DNA of 64,000 nucleotides, from the NCBI RefSeq assembly GCF_057098645.1, contig NZ_CM169472.1; one strand, 5' to 3'. Both the position numbers and the translations under genes were made by a program. The notes below the pieces were generated by a model. That model saw only the letters and a list, made by a program, of their open reading frames with translations, did not search any database and was not told the DNA's origin. Positions 37,923 to 55,691 of this stretch are shown here, one piece after another (position 1 is the stretch's first letter; every line of letters begins with the position of its first letter).

Positions 37923-38007
37923 GCCGAAGTGGCGAAATCGGTAGACGCAGTTGATTCAAAATCAACCGTAGAAATACGTGCCGGTTCGAGTCCGGCCTTC
38001 GGCACCA
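37923..38007 (+). tRNA. leuX: tRNA-Leu (anticodon CAA)
   Basis: 85-nt sequence GCCGAAGTGGCGAAATCGGTAGACGCAGTTGATTCAAAATCAACCGTAGAAATACGTGCCGGTTCGAGTCCGGCCTTCGGCACCA with long variable arm. Confidence 0.95.
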
Positions 38008-38171
38008 TTATTACTTCCAAGTCCATCCGAGTAAGTCCGATTATCCATTAAAAATCAATACTTTCAGCGATTTCTACGATCTTGGATCGTCCGAGGTTGT
38101 CCGTTGAAATCCGGATGTCATTGGGGGCATAATTGGGGGCATCTTAACTTCGATTAGAAATGTGCCCCCAA

Positions 38172-39446
38172 ATGAAGCTCAATGCTAGACAAGTCGAGAC
38201 AGCAAAGCCAAAAGACAAAAGCTACAAAATGGCCGATGGCGGCGGTTTGTATCTCGAGGTTTCGGCCAAGGGGTCTAAATACTGGCGCATGAAATACCGA
38301 CGCCCCTCTGACAAAAAAGAGGATCGCCTCGCTTTTGGTGTTTGGCCGACCGTGACGCTTGCTGAAGCTAGAACGAGGAGGGATGAAGCGAAAAAGTTGC
38401 TGGCGCAAGGTATAGATCCAAAAGCAGTACAGAAAGAGGCTCAAGCAGAGAATGCTGGTGCTTATAATTTTGAAACTATTGCTCGTGAATGGCACGCCAG
38501 CAACAAACGTTGGAGTGAGGATCATCGGGCGCGTGTTCTTCGCTATCTAGAGCTGTATATCTTTCCTTATATTGGCTTGTCTGATATCCGACAGCTTAAA
38601 ACTAGCCATCTTTTAGCACCGATAAAAAAAGTTGATGCCAGTGGTAAGCATGATGTGGCGCAGCGTCTTCAGCAACGTGTTACTGCTATTATGCGCTATG
38701 CCGTACAGAACGATTATATAGATTCAAATCCTGCAAGTGATATGGCTGGTGCGTTATCGACAGCTAAAACGCGGCACTATCCAGCTCTACCATCACATCG
38801 TTTTCCTGAGTTCTTAGCACGTCTTGCTGCATATCGTGGTCGTATGATGACGAAAATTGCGGTTGAACTTTCTTTATTAACATTTGTTCGTTCCAGTGAG
38901 CTACGTTTCGCTCGCTGGGATGAATTCGACTTCGATAAATCTCTATGGCGTATACCTGCAAAACGCGAGGAAATTAAAGGCGTACGTTACTCATATAGAG
39001 GAATGAAGATGAAGGAAGAGCATCTCGTTCCACTTAGTAGGCAAGCGATAGGGTTGTTGGAGCAGTTAAAGCAGATTAGTGGTGATAAGACGCTGCTTTT
39101 CCCTGGGGATCATGACGCAACTAAGGTTATGAGTGAGAACACTGTTAATAATGCATTGCGTGCGATGGGCTATGATACGAAAACAGAAGTTTGCGGACAT
39201 GGTTTTAGGACAATGGCACGTGGTGCGTTAGGAGAGTCAGGATTATGGAGTGATGATGCTATTGAACGCCAATTGAGCCATTCGGAACGTAATAATGTGC
39301 GAGCTGCGTATATTCATACGTCTGAGCATTTAGATGAGCGCAGACTAATGGTCCAATGGTGGGCAGATTATCTTTATTCCAACAGAGAGAAGCATATCTC
39401 TGCTTTTGAATTTGCAAATAAACTTAATAAAAATAGCCTTGATTAA
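38172..39446 (+). CDS. intB: P4-type tyrosine integrase
   Basis: N-terminus MKLNARQVETAKPKDKSYKMADGGGLYLEV... typical of P4-family integrases, directly downstream of tRNA-Leu. Confidence 0.9.
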   Translation: MKLNARQVETAKPKDKSYKMADGGGLYLEVSAKGSKYWRMKYRRPSDKKEDRLAFGVWPTVTLAEARTRRDEAKKLLAQGIDPKAVQKEAQAENAGAYNFETIAREWHASNKRWSEDHRARVLRYLELYIFPYIGLSDIRQLKTSHLLAPIKKVDASGKHDVAQRLQQRVTAIMRYAVQNDYIDSNPASDMAGALSTAKTRHYPALPSHRFPEFLARLAAYRGRMMTKIAVELSLLTFVRSSELRFARWDEFDFDKSLWRIPAKREEIKGVRYSYRGMKMKEEHLVPLSRQAIGLLEQLKQISGDKTLLFPGDHDATKVMSENTVNNALRAMGYDTKTEVCGHGFRTMARGALGESGLWSDDAIERQLSHSERNNVRAAYIHTSEHLDERRLMVQWWADYLYSNREKHISAFEFANKLNKNSLD

Positions 39447-39613
39447 GTCTCCGCTTAGTTTGAACTAGCCTTCATCAACAGCAATGCTTGTGTCTTTTTA
39501 ACCTTCACTTAACAACTTCTTAGGCAATTATTCCATTGCTTTTAAAAACTAAGTATTCCTTAGTAATTTCGAGTGTAAAAAGTGCAAACCTACCTCCAAA
39601 AAGAGGATTTTCG

Positions 39614-39817
39614 ATGCTTCCAATTAGGTTAAAAAAAGCCCGATTGAATGCTGGGTTAACTCAAGAACAGTTGGGAATACTTGTTGGCATTGATGAATGC
39701 TCTGCCAGTGCTCGCATGAATCAATATGAGAAAGGTAAACATATGCCCGATTTTTCACTTACTAAAAAAATCGCTGATTTATTAAATGTCCCTGTCTCAT
39801 ATTTTTACACACCCTAA
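39614..39817 (+). CDS. XRE-family HTH protein, candidate restriction-modification controller (C protein)
   Basis: 67-aa ORF LKKARLNAGLTQEQLGILVGIDECSASARMNQYEKG..., SD aagagga upstream; precedes a putative R gene. Confidence 0.55.
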   Translation: MLPIRLKKARLNAGLTQEQLGILVGIDECSASARMNQYEKGKHMPDFSLTKKIADLLNVPVSYFYTP

Positions 39818-39911
39818 GATGACTTGGCAGAAATTATTTTGTTGATTAATAAACTAGACAAAAAACAGCGGTTAATTTTATTAAAAAATTTATCAGATGG
39901 ATTTATAAGTC

Positions 39912-40730
39912 ATGAATAAGCAAGAAGTTATACTTAAAGTGCAGGAGTGTGCTGCGTGGTGGATTTTGGAGAGACAAAGTAAACTAACAAAGTTAATGTC
40001 AGAAACAATGTCCATAAATCCGTTTATGACCCCTTTTATTTTTGATTATCATTCCCTTAATGATTTTGATGAACTAGTTGAAGCAATAATTGCTAAGCAT
40101 TTAATGACTGGGCATGATACTGGCTTTGGAAAATTGATTGATGAAAAAATACTTCCTAGAGTGTTTGGTGCATATAAATTAGATAAAAGTTATAGAGCTG
40201 CCAACGAGCCTTTTATACACCCTTGCTTTGATGAAATAGATCATGTAATACAAAGGGATGATGGTAGAATTGAGCTTTTATCTCTTAAGGCAGGGAAATG
40301 GACTATTCAATTGACGATGGCTGTCCAACTAAATAAAGCATTTCACGAAATCATAAATAATTATCCTGGAGTGGCTGACAATATAGTGGTTGGGGTTTTT
40401 TATGGAAATAGCCATGGATTAACTGATAAGTATAGAATCTTACGAGGTATCAATACTGGTGCAAACCACAATGTGATTGATATTCGTGACAAAGTGCATG
40501 TATATGCTGGTAAAGAATTTTGGTCATGGCTTAACAATGGTGAGGCTGAAACCCAGCATTGGGTACTTGAAGGTATAGAACGTGCTGTAAAAGAAGCAGA
40601 TATAAAAGAAAAAAATAAAGATCTTATTGAAAAATTCAAAGAACATGTTGCAAAGAAGTACAATGAGCAAGTTCTAAATGCTGATGGCACAGCTCAATGG
40701 CACAAATTACTTGAAATGATTAATGAATAA
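39912..40730 (+). CDS. uncharacterised protein, candidate type II restriction endonuclease (by context)
   Basis: 272-aa AT-rich ORF convergent with a C5-MTase and preceded by a C-protein-like HTH; possible PD-(D/E)xK-like segment DEIDHVIQRDDGRIELLSLK. Confidence 0.4.
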   Translation: MNKQEVILKVQECAAWWILERQSKLTKLMSETMSINPFMTPFIFDYHSLNDFDELVEAIIAKHLMTGHDTGFGKLIDEKILPRVFGAYKLDKSYRAANEPFIHPCFDEIDHVIQRDDGRIELLSLKAGKWTIQLTMAVQLNKAFHEIINNYPGVADNIVVGVFYGNSHGLTDKYRILRGINTGANHNVIDIRDKVHVYAGKEFWSWLNNGEAETQHWVLEGIERAVKEADIKEKNKDLIEKFKEHVAKKYNEQVLNADGTAQWHKLLEMINE

Positions 40731-40767
40731 AAAACTGGCCTAAGGGCCAGTTTTTTTATGACTAATT

Positions 40768-42021
40768 CTAAACTTCTTCTTCAAGGTCGTAGTAAGAAAC
40801 ATCTCCACTATATGCTTGACCATTTTTAAAGAAAGATCTGGTTCTAATATGCGGTCTAATATGGGTTTCTATATAATCTGGAGTTACTAAATCAGCAACC
40901 TTATTTTCTTGTATACGATGAAGAAGTTCCATAGCAGCTTCCCCTGCAACTTTACCTAACCGGACAGGAACTGCGTTACCTATCTGTCTGAATTTTTCTG
41001 TAGTTGTACCTTCAAATTTCCAGTAATCAGGAAACTCTTGTATCGCGGCAGCTTCACCAACAGAAATAGCTCTAAGTTCAGTTGGGTGGCACATACTTGT
41101 TCCCGCATGATTTGGCATTGTTACTACTGTGGGTGAAGGAAACTGGAAAGATAGTTTCCTCCAGTAAGCACTTCTTCCTCCTTTAAGATACCAGCTTTTT
41201 CCCATAGATTCTTTTTGCATTTCTTCTGGCATGCTTCTCCAGTTTCCGCCAGGTGGAACCATTGAAAGATATTTCAGTTTTCTTGGCGAAAAATTCATGA
41301 CTTCTGGATATTTATCAACAAAACCGCTCTCTGGGCCAATTACATCCCCCAGCGTTTTGAATGGCGGAAGATTATCTTCTACTCTATTGCTGAATAAAGG
41401 GGAGGCGAAATTGGCTATCATTCCGAAGCGATTACCAATTAAAATAACACGCTCCCTAATTTGTGGGGCTCCATAGTTGGCAGCATTAACTACAAAGCAA
41501 TCCACATGATAACCTAGTTTATTGAATTCGTTAGCTACCCTTTTTATTAGAGAGCCTTTTTCGAAAGCAGATGCTGCGATTGTGCCTGATAGCTCCTTCT
41601 TTTTAGAAGCTGGAACTATAGACATTGATAATAAACCGCGTACGTTTTCCATTACGAAAACTTTTGGGTTTAATTCTTTAATCATTCGAACGTATTCGAA
41701 AATAAGCTGCCCTCTGGCATCTTCTAGCCCTAACCTATTTCCAAAAACACTAAATGCTTGGCACGGTGGACCGCCAGCAACTAAATCTATTTCTTCTTTA
41801 TCATTCACTCCGGCTAGTGCTAATAATTCAGAGCCAGTGCAGTCAACAATACTACCTTCGAATACAGCAAGATTTGGCTTATTAGTTTTAATTGTTTTTA
41901 GAGCTGCCTTATCTTGTTCAACGCAAGCTACGAGCTCAAAGCCAGCCTCTTCGAGACCTAAGTCTAACCCCATTGCGCCACTAAATAGCGAAATAAACTT
42001 TTTACTAGACAAAATAATCAC
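40768..42021 (-). CDS. DNA (cytosine-5)-methyltransferase
   Basis: 417-aa ORF with motif I FSGAMG, motif IV GGPPCQAFS, motif VI ENV. Confidence 0.85.
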   Translation of the reverse strand: MIILSSKKFISLFSGAMGLDLGLEEAGFELVACVEQDKAALKTIKTNKPNLAVFEGSIVDCTGSELLALAGVNDKEEIDLVAGGPPCQAFSVFGNRLGLEDARGQLIFEYVRMIKELNPKVFVMENVRGLLSMSIVPASKKKELSGTIAASAFEKGSLIKRVANEFNKLGYHVDCFVVNAANYGAPQIRERVILIGNRFGMIANFASPLFSNRVEDNLPPFKTLGDVIGPESGFVDKYPEVMNFSPRKLKYLSMVPPGGNWRSMPEEMQKESMGKSWYLKGGRSAYWRKLSFQFPSPTVVTMPNHAGTSMCHPTELRAISVGEAAAIQEFPDYWKFEGTTTEKFRQIGNAVPVRLGKVAGEAAMELLHRIQENKVADLVTPDYIETHIRPHIRTRSFFKNGQAYSGDVSYYDLEEEV

Positions 42022-42337
42022 CTACATACTTAGCAGCCAAATACTAGGATATTGTAAAGGATTAACACTAATCCTCAACTCAAGTTTCAGGGATCTTAGC
42101 AGAATCTGCTTTGCAAGGATTCTATGAATGTAAATTAATAGATACTGGCGCGCAGTGCTTTCCCCGCCTCGCCCGCCCGCTTTGCAGGGCGGTTTTAATG
42201 CAGTTGCACAGTCACGCTCAGGCTGCGCCGGGAATGGCGCGGTCTGCAGAGAATGAGGCAGGAAAACGCATGCAAAGCCATGCACCTTATCGATGCATGG
42301 CTTTTTTCAGTAAAAACGGGAGGATTTTCGGGGAATT

Positions 42338-42910
42338 TTACACAGACTGACGTGATGCCAGTTGCGCACTTTTACGCGAAAAAATCATGTTCTGCGCAGG
42401 GGTGAATTTTTCACGGCTGTCATCCACCGAAGCCGCGTCAGGCCTGAATCCGATGGTCGTTAAAATGTCGCTATCCTGTGCGGAATAATTAATTTTTTCA
42501 CCCTTCGCAAGCCAGGACAGGAGGGCTTCACGCAGGGCATCTGTGGCACGCTGTATGGCACAGTTTCGGGCAATGGCCGTCAGCTCACTGTAGCCCATCA
42601 GCTCCGGTGCCAGTGCCGCCGCCAGTGCTGTGCCGTGCTGCTGCATAAAATCATTCAGCCGATCGCGGATGCTGATGTGCTGAACGGCTTCATGCGAACG
42701 AATATAACGACCGGCGGCCTGATTCACCTGCCATTTTCTGACTTCGATAATATTGCGTAATTCGTCCAGGCGACTGACGTTTCTGCCTTCTCCTGACAGA
42801 AGCCGCAGATATTCCTGTTCGGCCGCAGCCAGCTCATTTTTGCGTTGCAGCCATGCTGCTTTGTTATTCTGACAGGTGTCAAAGGCCTGCTGTAAGGCTG
42901 TGCTTTCCAT
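42338..42910 (-). CDS. psu: P4-like polarity suppression protein Psu
   Basis: 190-aa ORF at the end of the sid-delta-psu operon, length and position as in P4. Confidence 0.7.
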   Translation of the reverse strand: MESTALQQAFDTCQNNKAAWLQRKNELAAAEQEYLRLLSGEGRNVSRLDELRNIIEVRKWQVNQAAGRYIRSHEAVQHISIRDRLNDFMQQHGTALAAALAPELMGYSELTAIARNCAIQRATDALREALLSWLAKGEKINYSAQDSDILTTIGFRPDAASVDDSREKFTPAQNMIFSRKSAQLASRQSV

Positions 42911-42983
42911 CGTTATCTCTTTCTCATCATGCTGAAGAATAAAAATACGGTGTGCGGCGACGGCCGGGGTTAACCGGCAGCCC

Positions 42984-43484
42984 TCATTCCAGACGCAGCG
43001 AATATGATTGTGTTTTTAACCGTACTGGCGGCAGTTCCTGTTTTTCATGCAGGCTTTCTGCCAGTTCGTCCGGCGTGACCGGGCGGACAATGAAGCGGTT
43101 GATGGTCTGAAGCGTTTTAAACACCAGACCACAGCCCGGATCCGTGCACACATAAAAACGCTCGGTGACTTCCTGAGACAGACGCCGCGATGTTCTTGAC
43201 AGCGCAAGGCCTTTACATCTCCGACAACAATATCCGGTAACAAGCATTCTTTTCGGGCGCTTCATGCTACCGGAGGCTGACGTCAGTGAATCGCGGTATC
43301 TCTGTTTGCCTGAAATGTATTCCATTCCTGAATCTTTACAGTCAGAGAAAAAGCTTTCACTCGCTTCAAATGTCGCAGAGCAATAAATATTCCGGCACTG
43401 TGCAATCATTATCTTGGTGCCATCGTCCATGAAATGTGCGCGACGGGTGTGAGCAACATGTCCACACGACGGGCAGTAAATCAT
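42984..43484 (-). CDS. delta: P4-like Delta late-gene activator (tandem Ogr-type zinc finger)
   Basis: 166-aa ORF with two CxxC...CxxxxC zinc-finger units (CPSCGH...CRNIYC and CCRRC...CTDPGC). Confidence 0.8.
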   Translation of the reverse strand: MIYCPSCGHVAHTRRAHFMDDGTKIMIAQCRNIYCSATFEASESFFSDCKDSGMEYISGKQRYRDSLTSASGSMKRPKRMLVTGYCCRRCKGLALSRTSRRLSQEVTERFYVCTDPGCGLVFKTLQTINRFIVRPVTPDELAESLHEKQELPPVRLKTQSYSLRLE

Positions 43485-44215
43485 GACAGCAGTCCTCTGG
43501 CCTTAAGCACTGCTCCCTGCTGGTCTATTTTGTCCTGCCACACCTTGCGCTGTGCCGGTGTGCCTGCCACCTCATAATCCATGTGCGGGAGTGTTGCCGC
43601 TGACAGTCCGGTCAGCCGGAGAACCGGCTCGCCGGTGAGGCTGATTTGCATCTGTTTTATTTTCTGTTCCAGCGATGATTTCACCTGCTGCATGACAGCT
43701 TTATCGGGTGCGACGTAGCCCTGATGCCCGGTGGTGTTGGCGAGCGGATTTTCCTGTACCAGAATGCTCAGATGCATTGCCCGGACAAGCGCCTCACAGG
43801 TTTCATTCAGGGCGTGTTCCAGCTCATGCTCTGCATACAGACTCAGAAGGTGATGATGTGCCTTCCGGTAGGCGGTGGCCGTGCTGTCACACGCCCCTTT
43901 CAGGCGTTCACGTTCGAAATTCAGCACCACGGCCAGATTGTCATATTCCTGTACCAGCTCCCGGCGTGCCACGCGCTCAATGTGGCGCTGTTTCAGCTCG
44001 TCGCTCAGGACACCACCGGCTGCACGAAAGGCCGTGCGCCAGTCGTCAGCGTCGTTTCCGTCGGCCTGCGCCAGCGCATTTTTTTCCTGCTCTGCCCGTT
44101 CAATGGCCGTGACGGTCTCATCCATCAGTCGGGCGTTCTCAAGGTGGGCGGCTCTGGCCTTTTCCAGTTGTGCCAGTGCGGGTTGCAGATATTCAGGGAT
44201 GGTGTTGTCAGACAT
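43481..44215 (-). CDS. sid: P4-like Sid capsid size determination protein
   Basis: About 244-aa coiled-coil ORF upstream of delta; start assumed at MSDNTIPEYL. Confidence 0.7.
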   Translation of the reverse strand: MSDNTIPEYLQPALAQLEKARAAHLENARLMDETVTAIERAEQEKNALAQADGNDADDWRTAFRAAGGVLSDELKQRHIERVARRELVQEYDNLAVVLNFERERLKGACDSTATAYRKAHHHLLSLYAEHELEHALNETCEALVRAMHLSILVQENPLANTTGHQGYVAPDKAVMQQVKSSLEQKIKQMQISLTGEPVLRLTGLSAATLPHMDYEVAGTPAQRKVWQDKIDQQGAVLKARGLLS

Positions 44216-44287
44216 TTTCCGGCTCCTCGTCACTTCAGGTTAAGAAAATTGTGACGTACACCGGACAACAACACGACGCATTGCAGA

Positions 44288-44305
44288 TGTGCCAGCCCTG
44301 ACACA
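44288..44305 (-). promoter_or_regulatory. TGT-N12-ACA dyad, candidate Ogr/Delta activator site of the sid late promoter
   Basis: tgtgccagccctgacaca about 70-90 bp upstream of the sid start, matching the P2/P4 late promoter activator-site pattern. Confidence 0.45.
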
Positions 44306-44384
44306 GGAGACTCATCCTCAGACCGGCAAGCCAGGAAAAGGTCGCAGGAAAAACCGGCTTACTGTTTGTTTTTTTATATTTTAC

Positions 44385-44478
44385 TGTTCACCTCTGTTCA
44401 CCATAAGAAAAAAGATAAGTAATACAGTAAGTTAAATGGTGAACAATCGCAGTAATGACTGTTCACCGTCTGTTCACC
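44385..44478. repeat. P4 ori-like cluster of TGTTCACC iterons (alpha-binding type I repeats)
   Basis: Five TGTTCACC/GGTGAACA octamers within 95 bp. Confidence 0.6.
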
Positions 44479-44804
44479 CGTTGATGGACTTTTTGTGCTG
44501 TTTACTACTGTTTATTTTTATTAATTCACTGAAATAAATAAGAAAAAACAATTTGTATTTCACTATAATTTTTTCCAGCTCCTTCCAGAGCGTTTTAAAG
44601 CTATCTGGCGCTGATATACAAAAAATGCACAGCCATTGTAAGGCTGCCGGAACAAATCCCCCCTGTTGCGTCTGCCAAAAATATTCACAAAATAAAGCGC
44701 TACCCGAAGCCGGACGGACTTATCCGGTGCTGTATGGACATTAACGAGGTAGCCCGATGCAAGCTGTTTTTTCTTCCCCGTCTCCCGCCCCTGTGACGCC
44801 ACTG

Positions 44805-45023
44805 ATGCCGCTGCCGGACATCACGCAGGAGCGTTTTTTACGTCTGCCGGAAGTGATGCACCTGTGCGGCCTGTCACGCTCGACCATCTATGAACTCATC
44901 CGTAAGGGGGAATTTCCGCCGCAGGTGAGTCTTGGCGGTAAAAATGTGGCCTGGCTGCACTCTGAAGTCACCGCATGGATGGCCGGACGCATTGCCGGAC
45001 GCAAACGGGGGTACGACGCATGA
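44805..45023 (+). CDS. AlpA/Vis-family phage transcriptional regulator
   Basis: [51 protein letters not shown] matches AlpA-type HTH. Confidence 0.75.
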
Positions 45024-45412
45024 TAGTGCCCGCTCTGCAAAAACTCCCTTTTTCTGGCTTGCCTTTTTCCGGCATTTGCGGATATAGTTTTTCCGCTGCC
45101 GCAAAATCGGCAGCCGGGCGTGAGAACCCGTGTAGCTCGAAGGCGACATATGACGCGCCATGCGTCTTTTTTTGTGTCGCAATCAACGCCACAGAGCGCC
45201 AGATTATGGTGTGGCGTGTGGTTTGCCGTGCAGGTATGATCCTGTTCGCAATCGCATGTTATGCCACTGAGTCAATGGTAGCTCAGGCGGGGCAGCCTCC
45301 GGGCTGGCCGGTATTCTTCGAGGCCGGTATTCTCACCCCCGTCTGGGCTATCGCCATCGAGCGTGAGAACTCCGGCGATAGCAGTTATTTGCTACTCGAA
45401 GGAGGCTGCCTT

Positions 45413-45610
45413 ATGGCTACAACCCTTACCCCCTCACACCCTGAATTTGTCTTTGTGTTTGCGGCTGTCCGTCGCGCAGACCGTCATCCCCGTATCTGCA
45501 TGCTTCGCACCGTCGCCGGTGATGAACGCAGCGCCCGCCGTTCCCTTGTCCGTGACTATGTGCTCTCCCTTGCTGCCCGTCTGCCGGTGGTGGAGGTGTC
45601 CCGTGCGTAA
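45413..45610 (+). CDS. small hypothetical protein of the P4-like early region
   Basis: 65-codon ORF with strong SD ggagg 8 nt upstream; the longer listed ORF 44975..45610 is rejected. Confidence 0.35.
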
Positions 45611-45915
45611 TAAAAGCCCCTCAGACCGTCTCAGCGCGTCATGACGCCCGTGAACACCTCAGCATTGAGGCTTACCATAAGCTCAACCGCGCCAGCGCCG
45701 TATCCCGGTTTGTTGCAAAATGGCATCTGAATCGATCGCAGTTTGGCATTCGAATCGATCATGATTTGGCATCCATCTCCGATCACAGTTTGGCATCACA
45801 ATCGATCACGATTTGGCATGCTTCCGATCATTGATTGGCATCCTGCCAGTCACTCCGGGAATTAACTCTTTTCACCACAGTCTCCATTGCCGTGTTTAAA
45901 CCAGTGGAGACGTCA

Positions 45916-47481
45916 ATGTCCAGAAAGAGAAAATCCAGGAGCACTATGGAAACCTGTTTTAAGATCCTTCAGCTCAAGTTCGACAAGAAGCTGACTAACC
46001 GTTGTATCGGACTGACGTTACACATCAGCGCCTCAACCGTTTTTGAGGTTCTTGCCCGCTTCAAAGCCTCTTCTCTGTCATGGCCATTACCTGCTGATAT
46101 ATCCCATGACACGCTGGAGAAACTCATTTTTCCGCCCAAAGACACCTTTGCATCAGAGCTTGTAATGCCTGACATGTTGTACTTCGATACGGAAATGAGA
46201 AAACCAGGTGTGACGCGGCAACTGTTGTGGATGGAATACAAGGCACAGGCGGGTAACAAAGCGATGGGATACTCGCACTTCTGCCGTTGCTACCGGGAGT
46301 GGAAAAAAACGCGACGTCTCTCCATGCGCCAGGAGCATCGTGCCGGCGAAAAGCTTTTTATCGACTTCTGTGGTCCTACGGTTCCTGTTATTAATCCGGA
46401 CACCGGTGAGATACGCCGCGTGGCAATCTTCGTGGCCGTAATGGGGGCGTCCAACTATACCTACGTTGAAGCGTGCGAAGGTCAGGACATGATGTCATGG
46501 TTAAATGCCCACAGCCGTTGCCTGACCTTCCTGGGCGGCGTACCGAAGCTGCTCATCCCCGATAACCTCAGAAGCGCAGTGAAAAAGGCCGATCGATATG
46601 AGCCTGTCATCAACGACAGTTATCAGGCACTGGCTGAGCACTATGGCACGGTTATCATCCCGGCCCGACCACGCAAACCTAAAGATAAACCAAAAGCAGA
46701 AAACGGCGTCCTCATCGTTGAACGATGGCTTCTTGCCCGCATCCGTAATGAAACCTTCCACACGCTCAGGGCGCTGAATGCGCGCCTTAGGGAGTTACTG
46801 ACAGACATGAATAACCGGCCAATGAAGGGGTACGGCAATCAAACCCGTGCAGAACGCTTCCGCATACTGGATGCGCCAGCACTCTCTCCGCTGCCTCTGG
46901 CACCTTATGAATACACGGAATACAAAGCTGTGAAGGTTGGCCCTGACTACCACGTTGAATATGCCCGTCACTGGTACTCCGTTCCACACGAACTGGTCGG
47001 TCAGCGTCTGTCACTGAAGGCGGGGCAGTCGGTGGTACAGCTCTGGCACAAGGGGCAGTGTGTGGCGCAACATCCGCGCAGCACACATGAATATAAACAC
47101 ACAACCAATCCGCTTCACATGCCAGAGCGCCACCGGCAGCACGGGACATGGACACCGGAACGCCTGATCGAGCAGGGAAAACGTACGGGCCCGTCCACAG
47201 GCCGGGTGGTTGAATCCATGCTGAAGGCAAAACCCCATCCGGAACTGGCTTATCGTGCAGTTCTGGGGCTGCTGGCACTTCAGAAAAAATACGGCCCGGA
47301 ACGGCTGGAAAAGGCCTGTTACGTTGCCCTGCACTATAACGCCCCTGACAGACGCTTTATCGACAATCTGCTGCGTCACCATCGGGAGAACCTGGAGCTT
47401 CCATTATCCCGCCAGGGCGAACAACATCCGGCATATGCTTCAGAGCATGAAAACCTGCGTGGTCCGGGCTACTACCACTGA
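45916..47481 (+). CDS. istA: IS21-family transposase IstA
   Basis: About 520-aa ORF with N-terminal HTH and DDE-type core, followed by istB. Confidence 0.75.
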   Translation: MSRKRKSRSTMETCFKILQLKFDKKLTNRCIGLTLHISASTVFEVLARFKASSLSWPLPADISHDTLEKLIFPPKDTFASELVMPDMLYFDTEMRKPGVTRQLLWMEYKAQAGNKAMGYSHFCRCYREWKKTRRLSMRQEHRAGEKLFIDFCGPTVPVINPDTGEIRRVAIFVAVMGASNYTYVEACEGQDMMSWLNAHSRCLTFLGGVPKLLIPDNLRSAVKKADRYEPVINDSYQALAEHYGTVIIPARPRKPKDKPKAENGVLIVERWLLARIRNETFHTLRALNARLRELLTDMNNRPMKGYGNQTRAERFRILDAPALSPLPLAPYEYTEYKAVKVGPDYHVEYARHWYSVPHELVGQRLSLKAGQSVVQLWHKGQCVAQHPRSTHEYKHTTNPLHMPERHRQHGTWTPERLIEQGKRTGPSTGRVVESMLKAKPHPELAYRAVLGLLALQKKYGPERLEKACYVALHYNAPDRRFIDNLLRHHRENLELPLSRQGEQHPAYASEHENLRGPGYYH

Positions 47482-47497
47482 CAGAAGGAACAACAGT

Positions 47498-48253
47498 ATG
47501 AGTGATAACCTGTTAAACAAACTGACCCAACTGAAACTCCCGGCGATGGCCGGGAGCCTGATACGGCAGCGGGAAACGCCTCAGACCTACGACGAACTGT
47601 CGTTCGAGGAAAGGCTGACGCTGCTGGTTGATGACGAGCTTCTGAGCAGGGAAAACAGCCGTGTGGCACGGTTGAGAAAAAATGCCGGCCTGAAATACCA
47701 GGCAACACCGGAAGGGCTGCGCTATCCGGCCTCAAGAGGTCTGCGGGCTGAACAGATGAGAGAACTGCTGAACGGCCACTACATAACCCACAGGAAAAAC
47801 CTGCTGATAACCGGTCCGACAGGATGTGGCAAGAGCTGGATAGCCAATGCGCTGGGCGAACAGGCATGTCGACAGAAACACAGCGTCCGGTACTGTAGAA
47901 CCGGGCGATTACTGGAACAACTGGCTCAGGGACGTGTTGATGGCAGCTGGCTGAAATATCTGAAACAGTTGCAAAAAATACAGGTTCTAATCCTGGACGA
48001 TCTGGGGCTGGAACAGTTAAGTAACGCCCAGTGTAATGACCTTCTGGAGCTCATAGAGGATCGTTACGGACAAAGCAGCACGATAGTGGTAAGCCAGTTC
48101 CCGGTAGATAAATGGCATGGTCTGATGGAGAACCCAACAACAGCAGATGCCATCCTGGACAGACTGGTACATAACTCACACCGAGTGGTCCTTCAGGGAG
48201 AGTCACTGAGGAAAAATCCCCCGGTAGTGGAAAGCAGCGAAAAAACGCGTTAA
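47498..48253 (+). CDS. istB: IS21-family ATP-binding helper IstB
   Basis: Walker A GPTGCGKS, Walker B ILDDLG, C-terminal ILDRLVHNSHRVVLQGESLR as in IstB. Confidence 0.8.
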   Translation: MSDNLLNKLTQLKLPAMAGSLIRQRETPQTYDELSFEERLTLLVDDELLSRENSRVARLRKNAGLKYQATPEGLRYPASRGLRAEQMRELLNGHYITHRKNLLITGPTGCGKSWIANALGEQACRQKHSVRYCRTGRLLEQLAQGRVDGSWLKYLKQLQKIQVLILDDLGLEQLSNAQCNDLLELIEDRYGQSSTIVVSQFPVDKWHGLMENPTTADAILDRLVHNSHRVVLQGESLRKNPPVVESSEKTR

Positions 48254-48525
48254 AAAGCGGTAGAAAAAGTTAAGTTCCCGGTTGATCGAATGGATGCGAA
48301 TCGCTGATCGGACTTCGATGCCAATCCGTGATCGAATAGAGCGGAATACGCAGTTTGTTGGGGGTGATTTGATTCACCGTGAACTCTCCGGCCTGCATCA
48401 GCTCTACATTCCGCATATTTTCAGTTACCTGAATGAAGATATTGATTTTGTGCTGAATGAACTGAAAGCCAAAGGCCTGTGCCGCGATTTTCTCGCCCAG
48501 CAGAAAGACCGGGGAGACAGGACGC

Positions 48526-48981
48526 ATGTTTGATTTTCCCCAGCCCGGTGAGATTTACCGTTCTGCCGGTTTTCCCGATGTGGCCGTGGTCGGCATTCTG
48601 GAAGACGGTATTCCGTGGGAAATGCCGTACCGCTGCCCGGACATTGTCTGGAACCCGTACCGCCGTAAATTCAGTATCCTTGTGCGTATCCTCGCTGACG
48701 GGCGCACCACAGACATCCCGCTGGGGCGTTTTCTGCGGGAATTTACCTGTGACCGTCCTGACCTGTTTAAACGCAGCCCCGTAAACCGGCATGCGGTACT
48801 GAAAGAAATGGCCGGAGACCCGGAATTACAGAAATGGCGGGAGAAATATCTGGATATTTACCCGCAGGACCCTGTTCCGGTCAGCCGGGCGGCACCGGTG
48901 GCGCGGGAATGGCGGGAAATTCCCCGCACGGAGCCTGACCCGGAAATCACCCCGGATAACAGTTACCGCAATTATCTGTAA
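48526..48981 (+). CDS. P4-like early-region protein (orf151 equivalent)
   Basis: 151-aa ORF upstream of alpha in the same orientation. Confidence 0.5.
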   Translation: MFDFPQPGEIYRSAGFPDVAVVGILEDGIPWEMPYRCPDIVWNPYRRKFSILVRILADGRTTDIPLGRFLREFTCDRPDLFKRSPVNRHAVLKEMAGDPELQKWREKYLDIYPQDPVPVSRAAPVAREWREIPRTEPDPEITPDNSYRNYL

Positions 48982-49116
48982 TTAAAAAACGACACCCGAA
49001 AAATTAAATGTGCGTATTCGCGCAGGGATACGCACGTCTTCAGGAGACGCAGATATGCCTTATCAGTTAATGCAACCGGCACGGAATGCAGTCATCTGTC
49101 ACAGGGAGGAAAACAA

Positions 49117-49437
49117 ATGAAAACACCCTTACCGCCCGTCTTACGCGCTGCCCTTTACCGTCGCGCTGTCGCCTGTGCCTGGCTGACCGTGTGCGAACGT
49201 CAGCACCGCTACCCGCATCTCACCCTTGAGTCACTGGAAGCGGCCATCGCCGCTGAGCTGGAAGGCTTTTATCTGCGCCAGCACGGTGAGGAAAAAGGGC
49301 GTCAGATAGCCTGTGCCCTGCTGGAAGATTTAATGGAATCCGGCCCCCTGAAGGCCGCGCCGTCGCTGTCCTTTCTCGGGCTGGTTGTGATGGATGAACT
49401 CTGTGCCCGTCACATAAAAGCGCCGGTACTGCACTGA
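49117..49437 (+). CDS. P4-like early-region protein (orf106 equivalent)
   Basis: 106-aa ORF immediately upstream of alpha. Confidence 0.5.
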
Positions 49438-49451
49438 AGGAGAACAACACC

Positions 49452-51785
49452 ATGAAAATGAACGTAACCGCCACCGTCAGCCATGCGCTCGGCCACTGGC
49501 CGCGTATTCTCCCGGCGCTGGGGATTCAGGTGCTGAAAAACCGTCATCAGCCCTGTCCGGTCTGTGGCGGGAGTGACCGCTTCCGTTTTGATGACAGGGA
49601 GGGGCGCGGCACCTGGTACTGCAATCAGTGTGGTGCCGGTGACGGCCTGAAACTGGTTGAAAAGGTGTTTGGTGTCTCCCCGTCCGACGCGGCCGCAAAG
49701 GTGGCTGCCGTGACCGGCAGCCTGCCCCCGGCTGACCCGGCAGTGACGGCTGCCGCCGGTGCTGAAACAGACGCTGCCCGGAAGAACGCCGCCGCACTGG
49801 CACAAACCCTGATGGCGAAAACCCGTCCCGGAACCGGTAACGCCTACCTGACCCGCAAGGGCTTTCCCGGCCGGGAATGCCGGATGCTGACCGGCACACA
49901 CAGATCCGGTGGCGTGAGCTGGCGTGCCGGTGACCTTGTGGTGCCACTGTATGACGACAGCGGCGAACTGGTTAACCTTCAGTTAATCAGTGCTGACGGC
50001 CGTAAGCGCACCCTGAAAGGCGGACAGGTCAGGGGCACCTGTCACACCCTTGAAGGACAGAATCAGGCCGGAAAACGTCTGTGGATAGCGGAGGGATACG
50101 CGACCGCACTTACCGTACATCACCTGACCGGTGAAACGGTGATGGTGGCGCTTTCTTCCGTGAACCTCCTTTCTCTGGCCAGCCTTGCCCGGCAGAAGCA
50201 TCCGGCCTGTCAGATTGTCCTTGCCGCAGACCGTGACCTCAGCGGTGACGGCCAGAAAAAAGCCGCCGCAGCCGCAGATGCGTGTGAGGGCGTTGTTGCC
50301 CTGCCGCCGGTCTTCGGTGACTGGAATGATGCCTTCACGCAGTACGGCGGGGAGGCCACCCGTAAGGCCATTTACGATGCCATCCGGCCACCGGCTGAAA
50401 GCCCGTTCGACACCATGAGCGAAGCAGAGTTTTCCGCCATGAGTACCAGCGAAAAGGCCATGCGTATCTATGAGCATTACGGCGAGGCGCTCGCGGTTGA
50501 TGCCAACGGCCAGCTTCTGTCCCGTTATGAAAATGGTGTCTGGAAGGTGCTGCCGCCACAGGACTTTGCCCGGGATGTGGCCGGGCTGTTTCAGCGTCTG
50601 CGCGCGCCGTTCTCCTCCGGGAAGGTGGCCTCCGTGGTGGACACCCTGAAGCTGATTATTCCGCAGCAGGAAGCCCCCTCCCGCCGCCTGATTGGCTTTC
50701 GTAACGGCGTGCTCGACACGCAGAACGGCACGTTCCACCCGCACAGTCCGTCACACTGGATGCGCACCCTGTGCGATGTGGATTTCACCCCGCCGGTGGA
50801 CGGTGAAACGCTGGAGACCCACGCCCCCGCGTTCTGGCGCTGGCTTGACCGTGCCGCCGGTGGCCGTGCGGAAAAACGCGACGTGATTCTGGCCGCACTG
50901 TTTATGGTGCTGGCAAACCGCTATGACTGGCAGCTCTTTCTGGAGGTGACCGGTCCCGGCGGCAGCGGCAAAAGTATCATGGCCGAAATAGCCACCCTGC
51001 TGGCCGGTGAGGATAACGCCACGTCGGCCACTATTGAGACGCTGGAATCCCCGCGTGAACGTGCCGCGTTAACTGGCTTCTCACTGATACGCCTGCCGGA
51101 CCAGGAAAAATGGAGCGGCGACGGTGCCGGACTCAAGGCCATCACCGGCGGCGATGCGGTGTCCGTGGACCCGAAATACCGGGATGCGTACTCCACGCAT
51201 ATCCCGGCGGTGATTCTGGCCGTGAACAATAACCCGATGCGCTTCACCGACCGCAGCGGCGGCGTGTCACGCCGGCGGGTGATTATTCACTTCCCGGAAC
51301 AGATAGCCCCGCAGGAGCGCGACCCGCAACTTAAGGACAAAATCACCCGCGAGCTGGCGGTCATCGTGCGTCACCTGATGCAGAAGTTCAGCGACCCGAT
51401 GCTCGCCCGGTCACTGCTTCAGTCCCAGCAGAACTCAGACGAGGCACTGAACATCAAACGGGATGCCGACCCGACGTTTGATTTTATCGGCTATCTGGAA
51501 ACCCTGCCGCAGACCAGCGGCATGTATATGGGGAACGCCAGTATCATCCCGCGTAATTACCGTAAATACCTCTATCACGCCTATCTGGCCTACATGGAGG
51601 CAAACGGCTACCGGAATGTACTCAGTCTGAAAATGTTCGGGCTGGGGCTGCCGGTGATGCTGAAGGAATACGGGCTGAATTACGAGAAGCGCCATACCAA
51701 ACAGGGGATACAGACCAACCTGACGCTGAAAGAGGAAAGCTACGGCGACTGGCTGCCAAAATGTGACGACCCTGCAACAACCTGA
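49452..51785 (+). CDS. alpha: P4-like alpha primase-helicase
   Basis: 777-aa ORF with N-terminal zinc-binding primase motif (CPVCGG...CNQCG), Walker A GPGGSGKS, P4 position. Confidence 0.85.
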   Translation: MKMNVTATVSHALGHWPRILPALGIQVLKNRHQPCPVCGGSDRFRFDDREGRGTWYCNQCGAGDGLKLVEKVFGVSPSDAAAKVAAVTGSLPPADPAVTAAAGAETDAARKNAAALAQTLMAKTRPGTGNAYLTRKGFPGRECRMLTGTHRSGGVSWRAGDLVVPLYDDSGELVNLQLISADGRKRTLKGGQVRGTCHTLEGQNQAGKRLWIAEGYATALTVHHLTGETVMVALSSVNLLSLASLARQKHPACQIVLAADRDLSGDGQKKAAAAADACEGVVALPPVFGDWNDAFTQYGGEATRKAIYDAIRPPAESPFDTMSEAEFSAMSTSEKAMRIYEHYGEALAVDANGQLLSRYENGVWKVLPPQDFARDVAGLFQRLRAPFSSGKVASVVDTLKLIIPQQEAPSRRLIGFRNGVLDTQNGTFHPHSPSHWMRTLCDVDFTPPVDGETLETHAPAFWRWLDRAAGGRAEKRDVILAALFMVLANRYDWQLFLEVTGPGGSGKSIMAEIATLLAGEDNATSATIETLESPRERAALTGFSLIRLPDQEKWSGDGAGLKAITGGDAVSVDPKYRDAYSTHIPAVILAVNNNPMRFTDRSGGVSRRRVIIHFPEQIAPQERDPQLKDKITRELAVIVRHLMQKFSDPMLARSLLQSQQNSDEALNIKRDADPTFDFIGYLETLPQTSGMYMGNASIIPRNYRKYLYHAYLAYMEANGYRNVLSLKMFGLGLPVMLKEYGLNYEKRHTKQGIQTNLTLKEESYGDWLPKCDDPATT

Positions 51786-51792
51786 CCCACCT

Positions 51793-51818
51793 GACCGGCA
51801 TCTGCCGGTCTTTTTTTA
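51793..51818 (+). terminator. intrinsic terminator downstream of alpha
   Basis: ccggcatctgccgg hairpin followed by a T7 run. Confidence 0.6.
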
Positions 51819-51825
51819 TCCCGAC

Positions 51826-52115
51826 ATCCCCCGAAGGTGAACAATCCACTGTTCACCCTTCACCGTATATTCACCCGTTATCACACTGAAATTAAAAGAG
51901 AAAAACGAAAGGTGAACAGTGTGAACAATCAAATCAAAAAAAACTTTTTTCTCCCTGCGTGATTTTCAGTGCAGGGGACTAATCGCCGGTATGAGTCACA
52001 CCGGCAGAATACCGGAGGTGAAGAATCGAATGTTCACCCTTCACCCATTATTCACCACCTATCATACTGAAATAAAAGGAGAAAAAAGAAAGGTGAACAG
52101 TGTGAACAGTTCTTT
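51826..52115. repeat. crr-like cis replication region: two direct repeats of about 105 bp, each carrying TGTTCACC/GGTGAACA iterons
   Basis: Copies at about 51831-51935 and 52005-52110, near-identical. Confidence 0.65.
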
Positions 52116-52320
52116 CGAAAAAAAATTTTTTATGTGGATAAAAGATGCACTGGTTTGGATCCGAGCTACGGATCCAAACTTACTGATTAAAAATGATTTA
52201 ACTTTCCGATTTATTGATGGGCTGAAAATAGATTGGTCAGAAAAACAGTGGGGGCACAAAAGGGGGCATATTTCATTGTTGTGTTTTATTATTTGTTTTT
52301 TATCATTAACTTATTTTGAT

Positions 52321-52344
52321 GTTTGAGTCCGGCCTTCGCACCAC
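52321..52344 (+). repeat. degenerate direct repeat of the tRNA-Leu 3' end (attR-like island boundary)
   Basis: gtttgagtccggccttcgcaccac versus tRNA 3' end gttcgagtccggccttcggcacca. Confidence 0.55.
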
Positions 52345-53020
52345 ACCGTATGCAAATCGAGTCGCTCAAGGGCGGCTTTTTTTGTGTCTGAAATCACCCA
52401 TATCCGTGCAGTATATAGGCCTGCCAGAAAAGCAGTTCAGTATTCTTCATTTTGTAGTCGATGGTCCCAAGTTTGCTCTGGCTGGAAGCTGCATCGTCCA
52501 CATTACGTGGGCAGGGTGGTTTCGCTATGCTACTTGAACGTTTTGACCATGTGGCTCAGGTAGCTAATATCAAAAGACGTCATTTTGTCTCCACGCCCAC
52601 CTTGGTGAACATTCAATAAATAGTTTCGGTCGAGAGCAGTTATGTAGGGCTAGCAGACGAGATGCGCAGACATCTTGTTGAAGACAATTATACTGACCAC
52701 CTGAGAACGCTATTCTACCGAATAATATTTATTATCTTGGCGAATAATGATGATTACCTGTGTAACTATGGTTTTATGCTGATGGGACCGGCAGTACAAT
52801 TTCTGTAGTGTACTCGCAATTTCAGATCTCTGGCGTTTATTCTGGTGCAAAGGAGGTATGTGATGAAAACTTTGCTACCATGCCATTAAATGCGACCAAT
52901 ATCGGATTATCCATCAGTTGCTTGTCGTAGATTTCATTGGTTATAAAAATGCAAGGTGTAAAAGATGAAATTTATAATTATTAGTTAAGTGGCTAGTTTT
53001 ATAGTAATTTAGACAATAGG

Positions 53021-55069
53021 ATGTATGGAAAAATGGAAAAAGTTTATGATACCACTAGAATTAGTAATCTTGCTAACGACCCGAAACAGTTTTGTTCTTT
53101 TTTTTGTGAGTACATAAAAAGAGATGATATTAGTATAGATATCGCCTTGGATGTGCTGAGAATATCTTCCATCTATTATAATAGATTTTCAGTTCAGACT
53201 GAAGTTGAGTATAACAATACATTCAAAAAATGTATTAATGAGCTAGTAAACTCATTTCCTGATAACATTGAACTAATTTCTGAGTTCGAGAGTCAATGTA
53301 AAATTATGCATGATATAAATAATTCTTTCTTTGCGGCTACAAAATGTGCTGGTATTTGGCGTGAAAATACAAAAAAATCACATGCATTAATACTTAATCT
53401 CATCATGTTTTGTGAGATGTTTTTATCATCATTATCATCCTTGGTTGTGGTCAATGATCCTAAAAAAATGAAGAGGATTTTTCCATTATTTATCGTTTCT
53501 GAAAATATTAATATTCATGCTGAACCTGATATCGAATATTTTCGAGTTATCGATAGGGCATTTGATGAGGTAGCCAATTACACCGGAAGAATATTTTCTT
53601 ATTTACGGACTCATGAGCCATTGAAACTAACTTCTTGTGTGAATAAACAAACCTTGCTTTCAATGGGAGGGTACCTTAATGAGTGGAATGTTTTTGACTC
53701 ATTAAGCAGAGTAAGAGACTTTTTCAGACTAAGTAGTGCAGTATTTACAAAATTGGATAATAACATTTACTCTCTTGAGGTTGATAGTTTTTGTTTATAC
53801 CGAGATTATGAGATTGCAAGAAATAGACTAATGATGAGAGCGTCACATCTATATAGCGAAGTTCATGAATTTAGTAACAAACATTTTCATCTAAATAGTT
53901 GGGTAAAGGATCATATGCCATCTTACTTAAATTCTGATGGCGTTTTTAGCTCATTTCATCTAAGCGAGTTGGAAAATATGTCTCCTGATGACCTTCATGA
54001 AGAATATGGGAATATATCATTATTTAATTGGGTGCACGCTTATCAATGTTTAGTCGAGTTATCTAAAGAAGAAATGAGCAAAAGATTTTCATCGACAAAA
54101 CCTATACCCCTACAGTTGGATCGCTGGCTGATCATAAAAAGCCGTGAGAGTTGGTTATCATTCTTTCAACGTAAGGGGATTGCAGCAGATGCAGCAAAAA
54201 AACTGATAGATTATTTTACCTTCAATTCAAAATCACATGATCTTAATGATTGCCCATTTATTCCCTGTATGGACGGTTTATGCTTAATGCCTGCATTCAT
54301 AGCAAATAGCTCAGTGACTCGCTCTCTAATGTCATTATTTGGTTCCAAAAAAATTTCTCAAGCAAGTAAAGGGCGATTTCATGAGCAACAATTTATAAAA
54401 CAAGTTCGTGATGCGGGGATTAAAGCTTCTCCAATTGATGCTCATGCTAATTATCAGTGCGATTGCGTGATTCTCCTGGATGATTGTTTGATTTTTACAG
54501 AACTAAAATCAAATGGTCAACCAATATATTATGGTAAGTACTATCAGCAAGTGTGTAACATCGTTGGAGATAGCTCATTAATACATGATCATAATAATAA
54601 ATTTATGCGTTCTTATTTTCAACAAATAAATCGAACTTCTGAACATTATCTTAATCATCTTGATGTGATCATTAAAGAATTCGAACTACCATCAACATGG
54701 CAACCCAAAGGTGTGTATAAGCTTATTGTTACTACAACTATGCTCGGTGGGAAATATCATGTGGATGATACATATGTAGCGGACAAATATGCATTATCTA
54801 GTTTTTTTCAACGAATACCTGGAGTGATATATCAAACAAATGAAAATGGAGAAATGGCGAAAAATATCATTGATGGGTTTGAGTGTTGCGAAGGGGAAAT
54901 CACTATCGATAAGTTTATAGATTATCTTTCCTCTTTGCCCGGTATTAATGCTGTACGTAAAAATATACAAAAATTAACTTATAGTGTTCGATTTAATGAA
55001 AAACTAGTCCATCACCCTTATTATGATTCTTGGGCTTTTGGCCCATATATTCGTAAGGGAAATGATTAG
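53021..55069 (+). CDS. large AT-rich hypothetical protein, no recognisable motif
   Basis: 682-codon uninterrupted ORF in an island of low GC; standalone gene flanked by long noncoding regions. Confidence 0.55.
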   Translation: MYGKMEKVYDTTRISNLANDPKQFCSFFCEYIKRDDISIDIALDVLRISSIYYNRFSVQTEVEYNNTFKKCINELVNSFPDNIELISEFESQCKIMHDINNSFFAATKCAGIWRENTKKSHALILNLIMFCEMFLSSLSSLVVVNDPKKMKRIFPLFIVSENINIHAEPDIEYFRVIDRAFDEVANYTGRIFSYLRTHEPLKLTSCVNKQTLLSMGGYLNEWNVFDSLSRVRDFFRLSSAVFTKLDNNIYSLEVDSFCLYRDYEIARNRLMMRASHLYSEVHEFSNKHFHLNSWVKDHMPSYLNSDGVFSSFHLSELENMSPDDLHEEYGNISLFNWVHAYQCLVELSKEEMSKRFSSTKPIPLQLDRWLIIKSRESWLSFFQRKGIAADAAKKLIDYFTFNSKSHDLNDCPFIPCMDGLCLMPAFIANSSVTRSLMSLFGSKKISQASKGRFHEQQFIKQVRDAGIKASPIDAHANYQCDCVILLDDCLIFTELKSNGQPIYYGKYYQQVCNIVGDSSLIHDHNNKFMRSYFQQINRTSEHYLNHLDVIIKEFELPSTWQPKGVYKLIVTTTMLGGKYHVDDTYVADKYALSSFFQRIPGVIYQTNENGEMAKNIIDGFECCEGEITIDKFIDYLSSLPGINAVRKNIQKLTYSVRFNEKLVHHPYYDSWAFGPYIRKGND

Positions 55070-55092
55070 AGCAATTTATTATATAGTCCATG

Positions 55093-55134
55093 TTATTCAC
55101 TGATTATATTATTGATAATATAATCAGTGAATAA
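55093..55134. promoter_or_regulatory. 42-bp perfect inverted repeat (20-bp arms, 2-nt centre)
   Basis: ttattcactgattatattat tg ataatataatcagtgaataa, 24 bp downstream of the 682-aa ORF stop. Confidence 0.4.
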
Positions 55135-55467
55135 CTCTAATTTTTTTAATGTTGGGGGGTAGCCTGAAATTGAAATTGGTACTACGGAACGGTATGATCA
55201 TATCGCATCAAAATATCAAGGTAGTGATGATTTTCTACGCAACGATCCAGAAACGTGGATTTTATCATCACCATAAGCAATGGCAGCGACAACACCATCA
55301 ATTTCTATATCAAAGGTGGTGAAATGAATTAGAAAATTGTTTATTTAATCCATTAGCGATAAGTTTTATTGTTATTTAGCCGAGATATATTCCATTGAAA
55401 AAAGTAAATTGGCACTGATATTATATCAAATGGGAATAATCCTTTTGTAAATAAGCTGAGGAATGTG

Positions 55468-55650
55468 TTAATTCACATCCAGCGCCTTATAAACCGCATC
55501 AACCGGTTCTGAGTAAAAACTTACCTGAAACTTGGTAAACAACTCTGCCGGAACTGTTGGAATATCCATAGCCGAGGATATCGGCAACAGAACACGTTTT
55601 GCGCCGCTATCGAAGGCGAGTTGTAAACTAGCGGCAAGATCCTGCACTGA
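55468..55650 (-). pseudogene. C-terminal remnant of a Lon-like (S16) protease gene
   Basis: 60-codon open frame without start: ...AKRVLLPISSAMDIPTVPAELFTKFQVSFYSEPVDAVYKALDVN resembles the Lon protease domain C-terminus; truncated at the 5' side. Confidence 0.3.
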
Positions 55651-55691
55651 TTATGTCAGCAATATTGAACATACTGCGATAGTTATCAACC

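Follow-up and report, generated by a model that had tools for sequence, protein, structure and literature searches.

The tRNA-linked hypervariable regions and defence hotspots, such as those at leuX of E. coli and Salmonella, share a common layout in which a P4-like element is followed by alternative low-GC cassettes. Low GC content is also the composition that H-NS prefers in the xenogeneic silencing described for E. coli and Salmonella. Two further described systems bear on the locus studied here. Intrinsic terminators that follow tRNA genes consist of a GC-rich hairpin and a T-run, and are conserved across E. coli. HipA-family kinases belong to the hipBA type II toxin-antitoxin modules, in which the classic arrangement is a gene for a helix-turn-helix (HTH) protein followed by a HipA_C gene. 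A paper devoted to the leuX hypervariable region of Salmonella is cited in PMC3401170. No paper linking leuX with a hipA relic was found in the literature, and the RefSeq protein accessions concerned were not mentioned in any.

Here, a stretch of 64,000 nucleotides (contig NZ_CM169472.1 of RefSeq assembly GCF_057098645.1; ‘the window’) was analysed with a focus on the interval 52345-53020. The window contains a single tRNA gene, for tRNA-Leu(CAA), at 37923-38007, and an 801-bp query taken around the interval matched an E. coli chromosome record with 100% identity. Because the matching record places the tRNA after lptF, lptG, yjgR and ahr, the gene can be identified as leuX. In the same record the genes lying 3′ of leuX encode an integrase, Psu, an Ogr/Delta-like protein, an Icd-like protein and a 777-aa primase-helicase, a gene set that describes a P4-like satellite prophage. 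Indeed, the element at leuX displays int, psu, delta, alpha, ori and the crr iterons of such a satellite. The window thus represents the leuX locus of E. coli, in which a P4-like satellite has inserted at leuX and occupies 38008-52344.

The original prediction had placed the interval at an island junction next to a degenerate tRNA repeat, and both statements are correct. A blastn comparison showed that the repeat is a copy of the leuX 3′ end (37984-38007) with 22 of 24 bases identical, and in satellite-free strains (strain D10, L003) the intact tRNA directly abuts the interval DNA. The position assigned to the interval, between this degenerate copy and the large ORF at 53021-55069, was likewise borne out.

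Taken as a whole, the interval is best read, with a probability of roughly 85%, as a composite intergenic region at a hypervariable leuX hotspot and not as one functional unit. Read from its left end, it is made up of five parts (Table 1): a copy of the leuX 3′ end (attR) left by the P4-like satellite, the leuX terminator, approximately 90 bp of leuX flank, a hipA relic, and an AT-rich spacer. The only working parts would be the terminator and the promoter/ribosome-binding region of the downstream 678-aa gene, the latter being expected in the last ∼ 100 bp.

Table 1. Features at and around the interval, with identity to the diverged allele L010 where it was calculated.
Feature	Coordinates	Strand	Evidence or remarks	Identity, window versus L010
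EcoO109I-like endonuclease	39912-40730	+	PADLOC REase_II, E = 5.5e-198	
C5 cytosine methyltransferase	40768-42021	-	Pfam, E = 6.9e-65	
attR of the P4-like satellite (degenerate repeat of the 24 nt at the leuX 3′ end)	52321-52343	+	blastn	
Intrinsic terminator of leuX	52359-52386	+	Terminator scan: hairpin 52359-52378, then TTTTTTT	
Conserved leuX flank, left of the variable cassette	52396-52482		Homology to other genomes	
Left flank (comparison with L010)				84%
Variable cassette: hipA relic, spacer, 678-aa gene, hairpin tail	52483-55682		blastn versus L004	
Dead hipA-family toxin kinase fragment (hipA relic)	52483-52808 (about)	+	Pfam, phmmer, tblastn, custom HMM	77.5%
AT-rich spacer upstream of the 678-aa gene	52809-53032	+	∼ 225 bp, GC about 0.32	82% and 77% (two halves)
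AGGAGG and 8-codon ORF MKTLLPCH	52851-52889	+	AGGAGG 52851-52856, ATG 52863, stop 52887-52889	
Uncharacterised 678-aa gene (682 aa from 53021), 33% GC	53033-55069	+	ORF list, RefSeq	DNA 90%; protein 91%; third codon positions 82%; four-fold degenerate sites 73%

The interval had been described as a strongly AT-rich, noncoding region without any ORF of 60 codons or more, and each part of this description holds within limits. The overall GC content of 0.41, compared with 0.484 for the window, makes the interval moderately and not strongly AT-rich; the segment values are 0.46 (52345-52700), 0.39 (52701-52850) and 0.32 (52851-53020), and the description fits the right-hand third only. No ORF of at least 60 codons lies wholly inside the interval, which holds a 59-codon GTG ORF (52384-52563), but a 73-codon TTG ORF (52316-52537), which spans the tRNA remnant and the terminator, overlaps the left edge. 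The DNA is noncoding today but it is not featureless, as approximately 300 bp represent a recognisable gene relic. Finally, the length given for the interval is real, but the gene-free stretch extends to 53032, because the downstream gene probably starts at 53033 (MEKVYD...) and not at 53021. This start is chosen because RefSeq gives a protein of 678 aa, and because the L010 product and the distant homologues begin at the equivalent Met. The RefSeq annotation is consistent with position 53033, where the gene should start.

The GC-rich hairpin of the leuX terminator begins 15 nt past the tRNA 3′ end. Hairpin and T-run abut the intact tRNA in strain D10 and are conserved among strains, as expected for a rho-independent terminator, and the tRNA end together with the terminator is the part of the query found in the majority of the E. 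coli genomes matched (1762 in all). What sets this terminator apart from others that follow tRNA genes is that the satellite insertion puts 14.3 kb between it and the functional leuX gene, and the displaced terminator now follows the crr end of the satellite. In the conserved flank to its right no feature was recognised, and no Pfam match was obtained in any frame.

The reading frame in register with position 52347, as it appears in a six-frame translation of the interval, contains ...GFAMLLERFDHV...RRHFVS...YVGLADEMRRHL...LFYRIIFIILANNDDYLCNYGFML... and matched Pfam HipA_C (PF07804) with E = 9.3e-8 and 32.4 bits, against a gathering cut-off of 30.5. The match was confined to this frame, and the other five frames of the interval gave no Pfam match. 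When 1.8 billion representative proteins were searched exhaustively with phmmer, the frame retrieved an intact 446-aa protein (P0097; E = 5.8e-23), as well as dozens of HipA-like proteins of 400-450 aa; a word-index protein search with the relic retrieved E. coli ORF fragments only. P0097 has a HipA_C domain of its own, and its gene lies directly behind an HTH gene (Pfam HTH_31/HTH_3) in L009. When P0097 was used as a tblastn query, its residues 233-325 aligned to 52509-52784 with 59% identity over 93 residues (E = 4e-30). Similarly, a custom HMM constructed from 18 full-length HipA proteins scored 73 bits, its positions 229-317 of 415 matching 52521-52787. No N-terminal, C-terminal or other hipA piece was detected, either by the HMM in all frames of 52300-53100 or by tblastn with P0097 across 52100-53300. 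Moreover, the plasmid sequences matched by tblastn are annotated as HipA family toxins, and in at least one GenBank E. coli record automated annotation has given a read-through variant of the relic ORF the name ‘HipA domain-containing protein’.

Together, these searches establish that the relic derives from a hipA-family kinase gene and is truncated to the central kinase core, covering only the middle of the HipA_C domain with its ...ERFD... strand and its catalytic-loop region, ...NNDDxLxN.... Its left end, 52483, was set by the cassette breakpoint and by the HMM match in L010, which extends slightly further. A suitable annotation of the relic would be that of a hipA pseudogene fragment.

The original prediction had suggested that the interval might hold decayed remnants of an integrase gene. 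A decayed coding remnant does exist, but its identity is that of a hipA-family kinase and not of an integrase. A derivation of the interval from the integrase gene of an older island once resident at leuX is very unlikely. The spot immediately after a tRNA gene is the normal site of an island integrase, and some RefSeq records call the neighbouring ORF (51991-52326) ‘integrase’, though this ORF lies inside the satellite, to the left of attR. However, six-frame Pfam scans at E <= 10 returned HipA_C only, and a search for integrase similarity, carried out by tblastn with the window's own 428-aa P4-type integrase, gave nothing beyond a best hit of E = 0.33 over 19 residues. An integrase relic was rejected on the strength of these two results. 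In addition, a blastn comparison of the attR side with the attL/int side recovered the 24-nt tRNA repeat only.

The relic cannot make a kinase, because it combines a nonsense codon with a ruined catalytic loop. The nonsense codon is an in-frame TAA at 52617-52619, at which position L010 and P0097 have Glu and the E. coli variant P0001 has Gln. The loop reads NN-DDYLCN in the window compared with NNDDDHLRN in P0097, one codon being gone and the His and Arg residues being replaced by Tyr and Cys, respectively, and thus departs from the pattern D-D-H-x-[KR]-N of the relatives aligned here. The frame is closed by a TAG at 52806-52808. What is left amounts to ∼ 90-100 of ∼ 430 codons, the middle fifth of the gene, with neither the N-terminal half nor the C-terminal quarter, and so falls well short of a complete, uninterrupted HipA ORF of ∼ 400-450 aa. 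As regards a hipB/HTH antitoxin gene, the six-frame Pfam scans returned no HTH family, and only 100 bp separate the leuX terminator from the relic. In comparison with working HipA-family kinases, therefore, the fragment is without the N-terminal domain, the C-terminal helices, hipB and any coding constraint, and is a pseudogene relic. As such the interval is ordinary, and the toxin family from which its pseudogene derives is well known. A sensitive blastn search with 52400-53020 across 5426 complete E. coli genomes revealed no intact hipA here, the matches being either to the same relic (332 genomes, >= 98.9% identity) or to the first 83 bp only.

In order to judge how the interval evolves, it was compared with diverged alleles, namely L010 (from an SRA assembly), which overlaps it fully, and L011, which overlaps it in part. 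L010 has the same layout, comprising terminator, a relic ending in ...QFL and a stop, spacer, and a gene of 681 aa; the partial third copy, L011, has additional indels. One genome per species was also scanned with a DNA pattern, which yielded no further diverged allele, only a 99%-identical E. coli-like contig. This 4.2-kb contig (L015, SFGN01000178.1), 99% identical to the E. coli region, is filed under a Lachnospiraceae MAG, and was probably misassigned during binning in the public entry.

The overall DNA identity between L010 and the window is about 80%, a level within which short conserved regulatory sites could hide. The noncoding DNA has diverged approximately as much as the silent sites of the 678-aa gene, given that identities of 77-84% stand beside 82% at third codon positions and 73% at four-fold degenerate sites. 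By codon position, the identity to L010 is 0.79, 0.75 and 0.82 in the relic and 0.94, 0.96 and 0.82 in the live gene. Third positions of the relic are thus not the most diverged, as they should be if purifying selection acted on its protein, and the flat profile implies that the pseudogene was already dead when the two alleles split. These comparisons establish that the relic is free of coding constraint and that the whole interval has diverged at a near-neutral rate, which indicates neutral drift. Conservation as a neutral spacer only, the outcome that had been named as counting against a function, is essentially what the L010 comparison shows.

Some observations would fit a hipA fragment that is still used, either as a short protein or as an exapted promoter/regulatory module for the downstream gene. 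The relic frame is open in L010 (116 aa) and in the E. coli variant P0001 (111 aa), the linkage of relic and gene is kept in two alleles about 20% apart, and a promoter-like TTGACC-16-TAATAT lies inside the relic at 52543-52570. Continued use is nevertheless highly unlikely, since the TAA interrupts the frame in the window and in most E. coli copies, the divergence is flat across codon positions, the kinase is truncated at both ends and mutated in its catalytic loop, and the promoter-like -10 element is destroyed in L010 (TAATAT to TAATCC). There is likewise only a slim chance that the relic has been co-opted as the control region (a promoter, an H-NS nucleation site or an anti-silencing site) of a new single-gene, nuclease-like anti-phage cassette. 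Co-option, if true, would account for the joint presence of relic and gene in two alleles ∼ 20% apart, and the linkage could mean co-option, though linkage alone explains it.

To the right of the relic, the spacer gave no Pfam, Rfam or structure signal and no match in plasmids. The 678-aa gene must be transcribed either from a promoter in the spacer or by read-through, and its promoter and 5′ UTR would be expected to lie there. No good sigma-70 site emerged from a consensus scan of 52809-53032; a looser scan picked out TATAAT at 52973 and TATAGT at 53000. Of these candidates, the TATAAT at 52973 is not kept in L010. The one block shared with that allele is TTTTATA(G/T)TAATTTAGA, located 27 nt ahead of the ATG and containing TATAGT in the window and TATATT in L010. 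The regions upstream of the homologues in Salmonella, Pectobacterium and a metagenomic contig are AT-rich as well, with the exception of Izhakiella (gene GC 0.53, upstream region GC 0.61), and in none of the four could the upstream DNA be aligned with the spacer.

The original prediction had also raised the possibility of promoters silenced by H-NS. That the right-hand, AT-rich part is such a promoter region has about an even chance of being true, judging from its composition, and is compatible with the composite reading, of which it would be the functional half. The GC content falls to 0.28-0.36 from about 52800 to 55400 (0.28-0.33 as far as the end of the 678-aa gene), compared with 0.48 for the window, and an extended AT-rich tract of the H-NS type is present, restricted to the right-hand third of the interval. 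Against this, the left 450 bp, at 46% GC, would be an atypical H-NS target, and no conserved promoter was pinned down in the spacer by either the consensus or the looser scan. Under the composite reading, H-NS would be likely to bind and damp the very AT-rich promoter region, as it does other foreign DNA.

The spacer contains the 8-codon ORF with a strong Shine–Dalgarno (SD) sequence to which the original prediction had drawn attention, and which is real in the sequence. The AGGAGG stands at ideal spacing from the ATG, and the gene that follows 170 bp downstream of the mini-ORF has only a weak SD. Both observations would suit a spacer encoding a leader-peptide (uORF) switch for the 678-aa gene, or a small RNA, with the SD and MKTLLPCH at its core, but such a role is highly improbable. 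The pattern AGGAGG-N4-9-ATG is not enriched over chance, occurring four times in the window compared with 2.1 expected, a count reached by 15 of 100 shuffles. In L010, AGGAGG is replaced by TAGAAA and the ATG by ACA, and so neither the SD nor the start that a leader peptide should retain in related alleles is conserved; the identity to L010 at 52840-52879, 75%, is among the lowest in the interval. The SD and its ORF are judged, from these sequence comparisons, to be a chance feature.

A small RNA finds no better support. Rfam 15 gave no match at E <= 1 in 51000-54000, the terminator scan found no terminators other than that of leuX, and no attenuator hairpin was present. The folding z-scores of the spacer, -0.39 and +0.29 for the two strands, show a minimum free energy no better than that of shuffled sequence, and the DNA diverges at the neutral rate. 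On the evidence of the sequence, the more exciting readings of the interval (small RNA, leader peptide, integrase relic) are removed. The gap left unannotated by RefSeq in about 330 complete E. coli genomes can be described instead as a tRNA terminator, a toxin-gene relic and the upstream region of a foreign gene, and is of little importance on its own.

The relic lies at the edge of a larger variable unit. In other E. coli (L004), homology to the window covers 52319-52482 (89.6%), stops exactly at 52482 and is found again from 55683 onwards, a short distance ahead of the stop codon of the gene for a phosphorothioate-dependent HNH endonuclease. The DNA between these points is replaced in L004 by a 1.2-kb cassette of the PDDEXK nuclease family (L004 5165-6400). 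The fixed breakpoints imply that 52483-55682 is one of several alternative cassettes, with the relic at its left edge; no flanking repeats were found at the breakpoints. Among the 5426 complete E. coli genomes, 332 carry the full interval together with the 678-aa gene (>= 98.9% identity), with the interval unannotated there. A third arrangement was observed in L010, in which an allele of the hipA-relic cassette, 15% diverged, is joined to BREX genes; the downstream DNA of L010 matches E. coli BREX genes at 99%.

Compared with the leuX hotspots outlined above, there is nothing unusual in this organisation, and the interval is the seam between the conserved flank and one cassette. The hotspot neighbours here are the gene for the phosphorothioate-dependent HNH endonuclease and, as far as the source strain is concerned, those of a Zorya II system. 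At 52482/52483, the seam forms the left boundary of a cassette that can be exchanged, and the hotspot to which it belongs, between leuX and the nan/fim genes, is rich in defence functions. Towards the other end of the cassette, 23 nt past the stop codon of the 678-aa gene, lies a perfect hairpin (55092-55135) whose 21-bp arms enclose a loop of 2 nt. It is followed by a T-run and is likely to be a strong terminator. A decayed copy of one arm of this hairpin occurs at 55645-55664.

The 678-aa gene is horizontally acquired, and lies between the P4-like satellite and the phosphorothioate-dependent HNH endonuclease gene. Its product belongs to no Pfam family. The few homologues, which come from Salmonella, Izhakiella, Xenorhabdus, Pectobacterium, Pantoea and one metagenomic contig, are solitary genes in surroundings unrelated to one another; the Salmonella homologue (73% identity) is situated at the end of a conjugative element. 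Residues D477, D483, E490 and K492 are invariant. Searches with Pfam, PADLOC and PDB profiles produced weak hints only, to NERD (E = 0.036), DUF4143 (0.0021) and PDC-M29B (0.0011), and the NERD and DUF4143 matches came from single members only. The D...ExK residues suggest that the protein may contain a PD-(D/E)xK or NERD-like nuclease core. Given the invariant D...D...ExK residues and the defence-rich neighbourhood, the gene is a candidate single-gene anti-phage nuclease, and as a nuclease-like gene it is a more promising object than the interval itself. A role for hipA as its conserved partner was considered and rejected, there being no hipA neighbour in Salmonella, Izhakiella, Pectobacterium or the metagenomic contig. 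Because no homologue examined has such a neighbour, the hipA relic is regarded as a passenger and not as a partner.

Further observations concern the satellite. The P4 iteron TGTTCACC is present in 13 copies in the window, where 1.7 would be expected. Clusters of it form an ori-like group (44385-44478) and a crr-like pair of 120-nt direct repeats (51831-52131), which are 83% identical, 181 bp apart, and located immediately 3′ of the 777-aa primase-helicase gene, as in P4 crr. A lone copy lies on the minus strand inside the hipA relic (52604-52611); it is not kept in L010 and is probably there by chance. The plus-strand ORF at 51991-52326 encodes 111 aa, spans the second crr repeat and ends a few bases before attR. 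RefSeq labels it ‘hypothetical protein’ or ‘integrase’ depending on the record, and since it has no Pfam match the latter label looks like an annotation artefact.

An IS21-type pair lies within the satellite at 45835-48253, upstream of the primase gene. Its members are a 548-aa IstA-like transposase, with rve and Mu-transposase C domains, and a 332-aa IstB-like ATPase; the pair is missing from an otherwise similar element in L001. The satellite slot between the integrase gene and psu (39912-42021) is occupied by a type II restriction-modification pair, for which the endonuclease and methyltransferase are listed in Table 1, and strain Z1323HEC0422, which matches the query at 100%, carries other genes in this integrase-psu slot.
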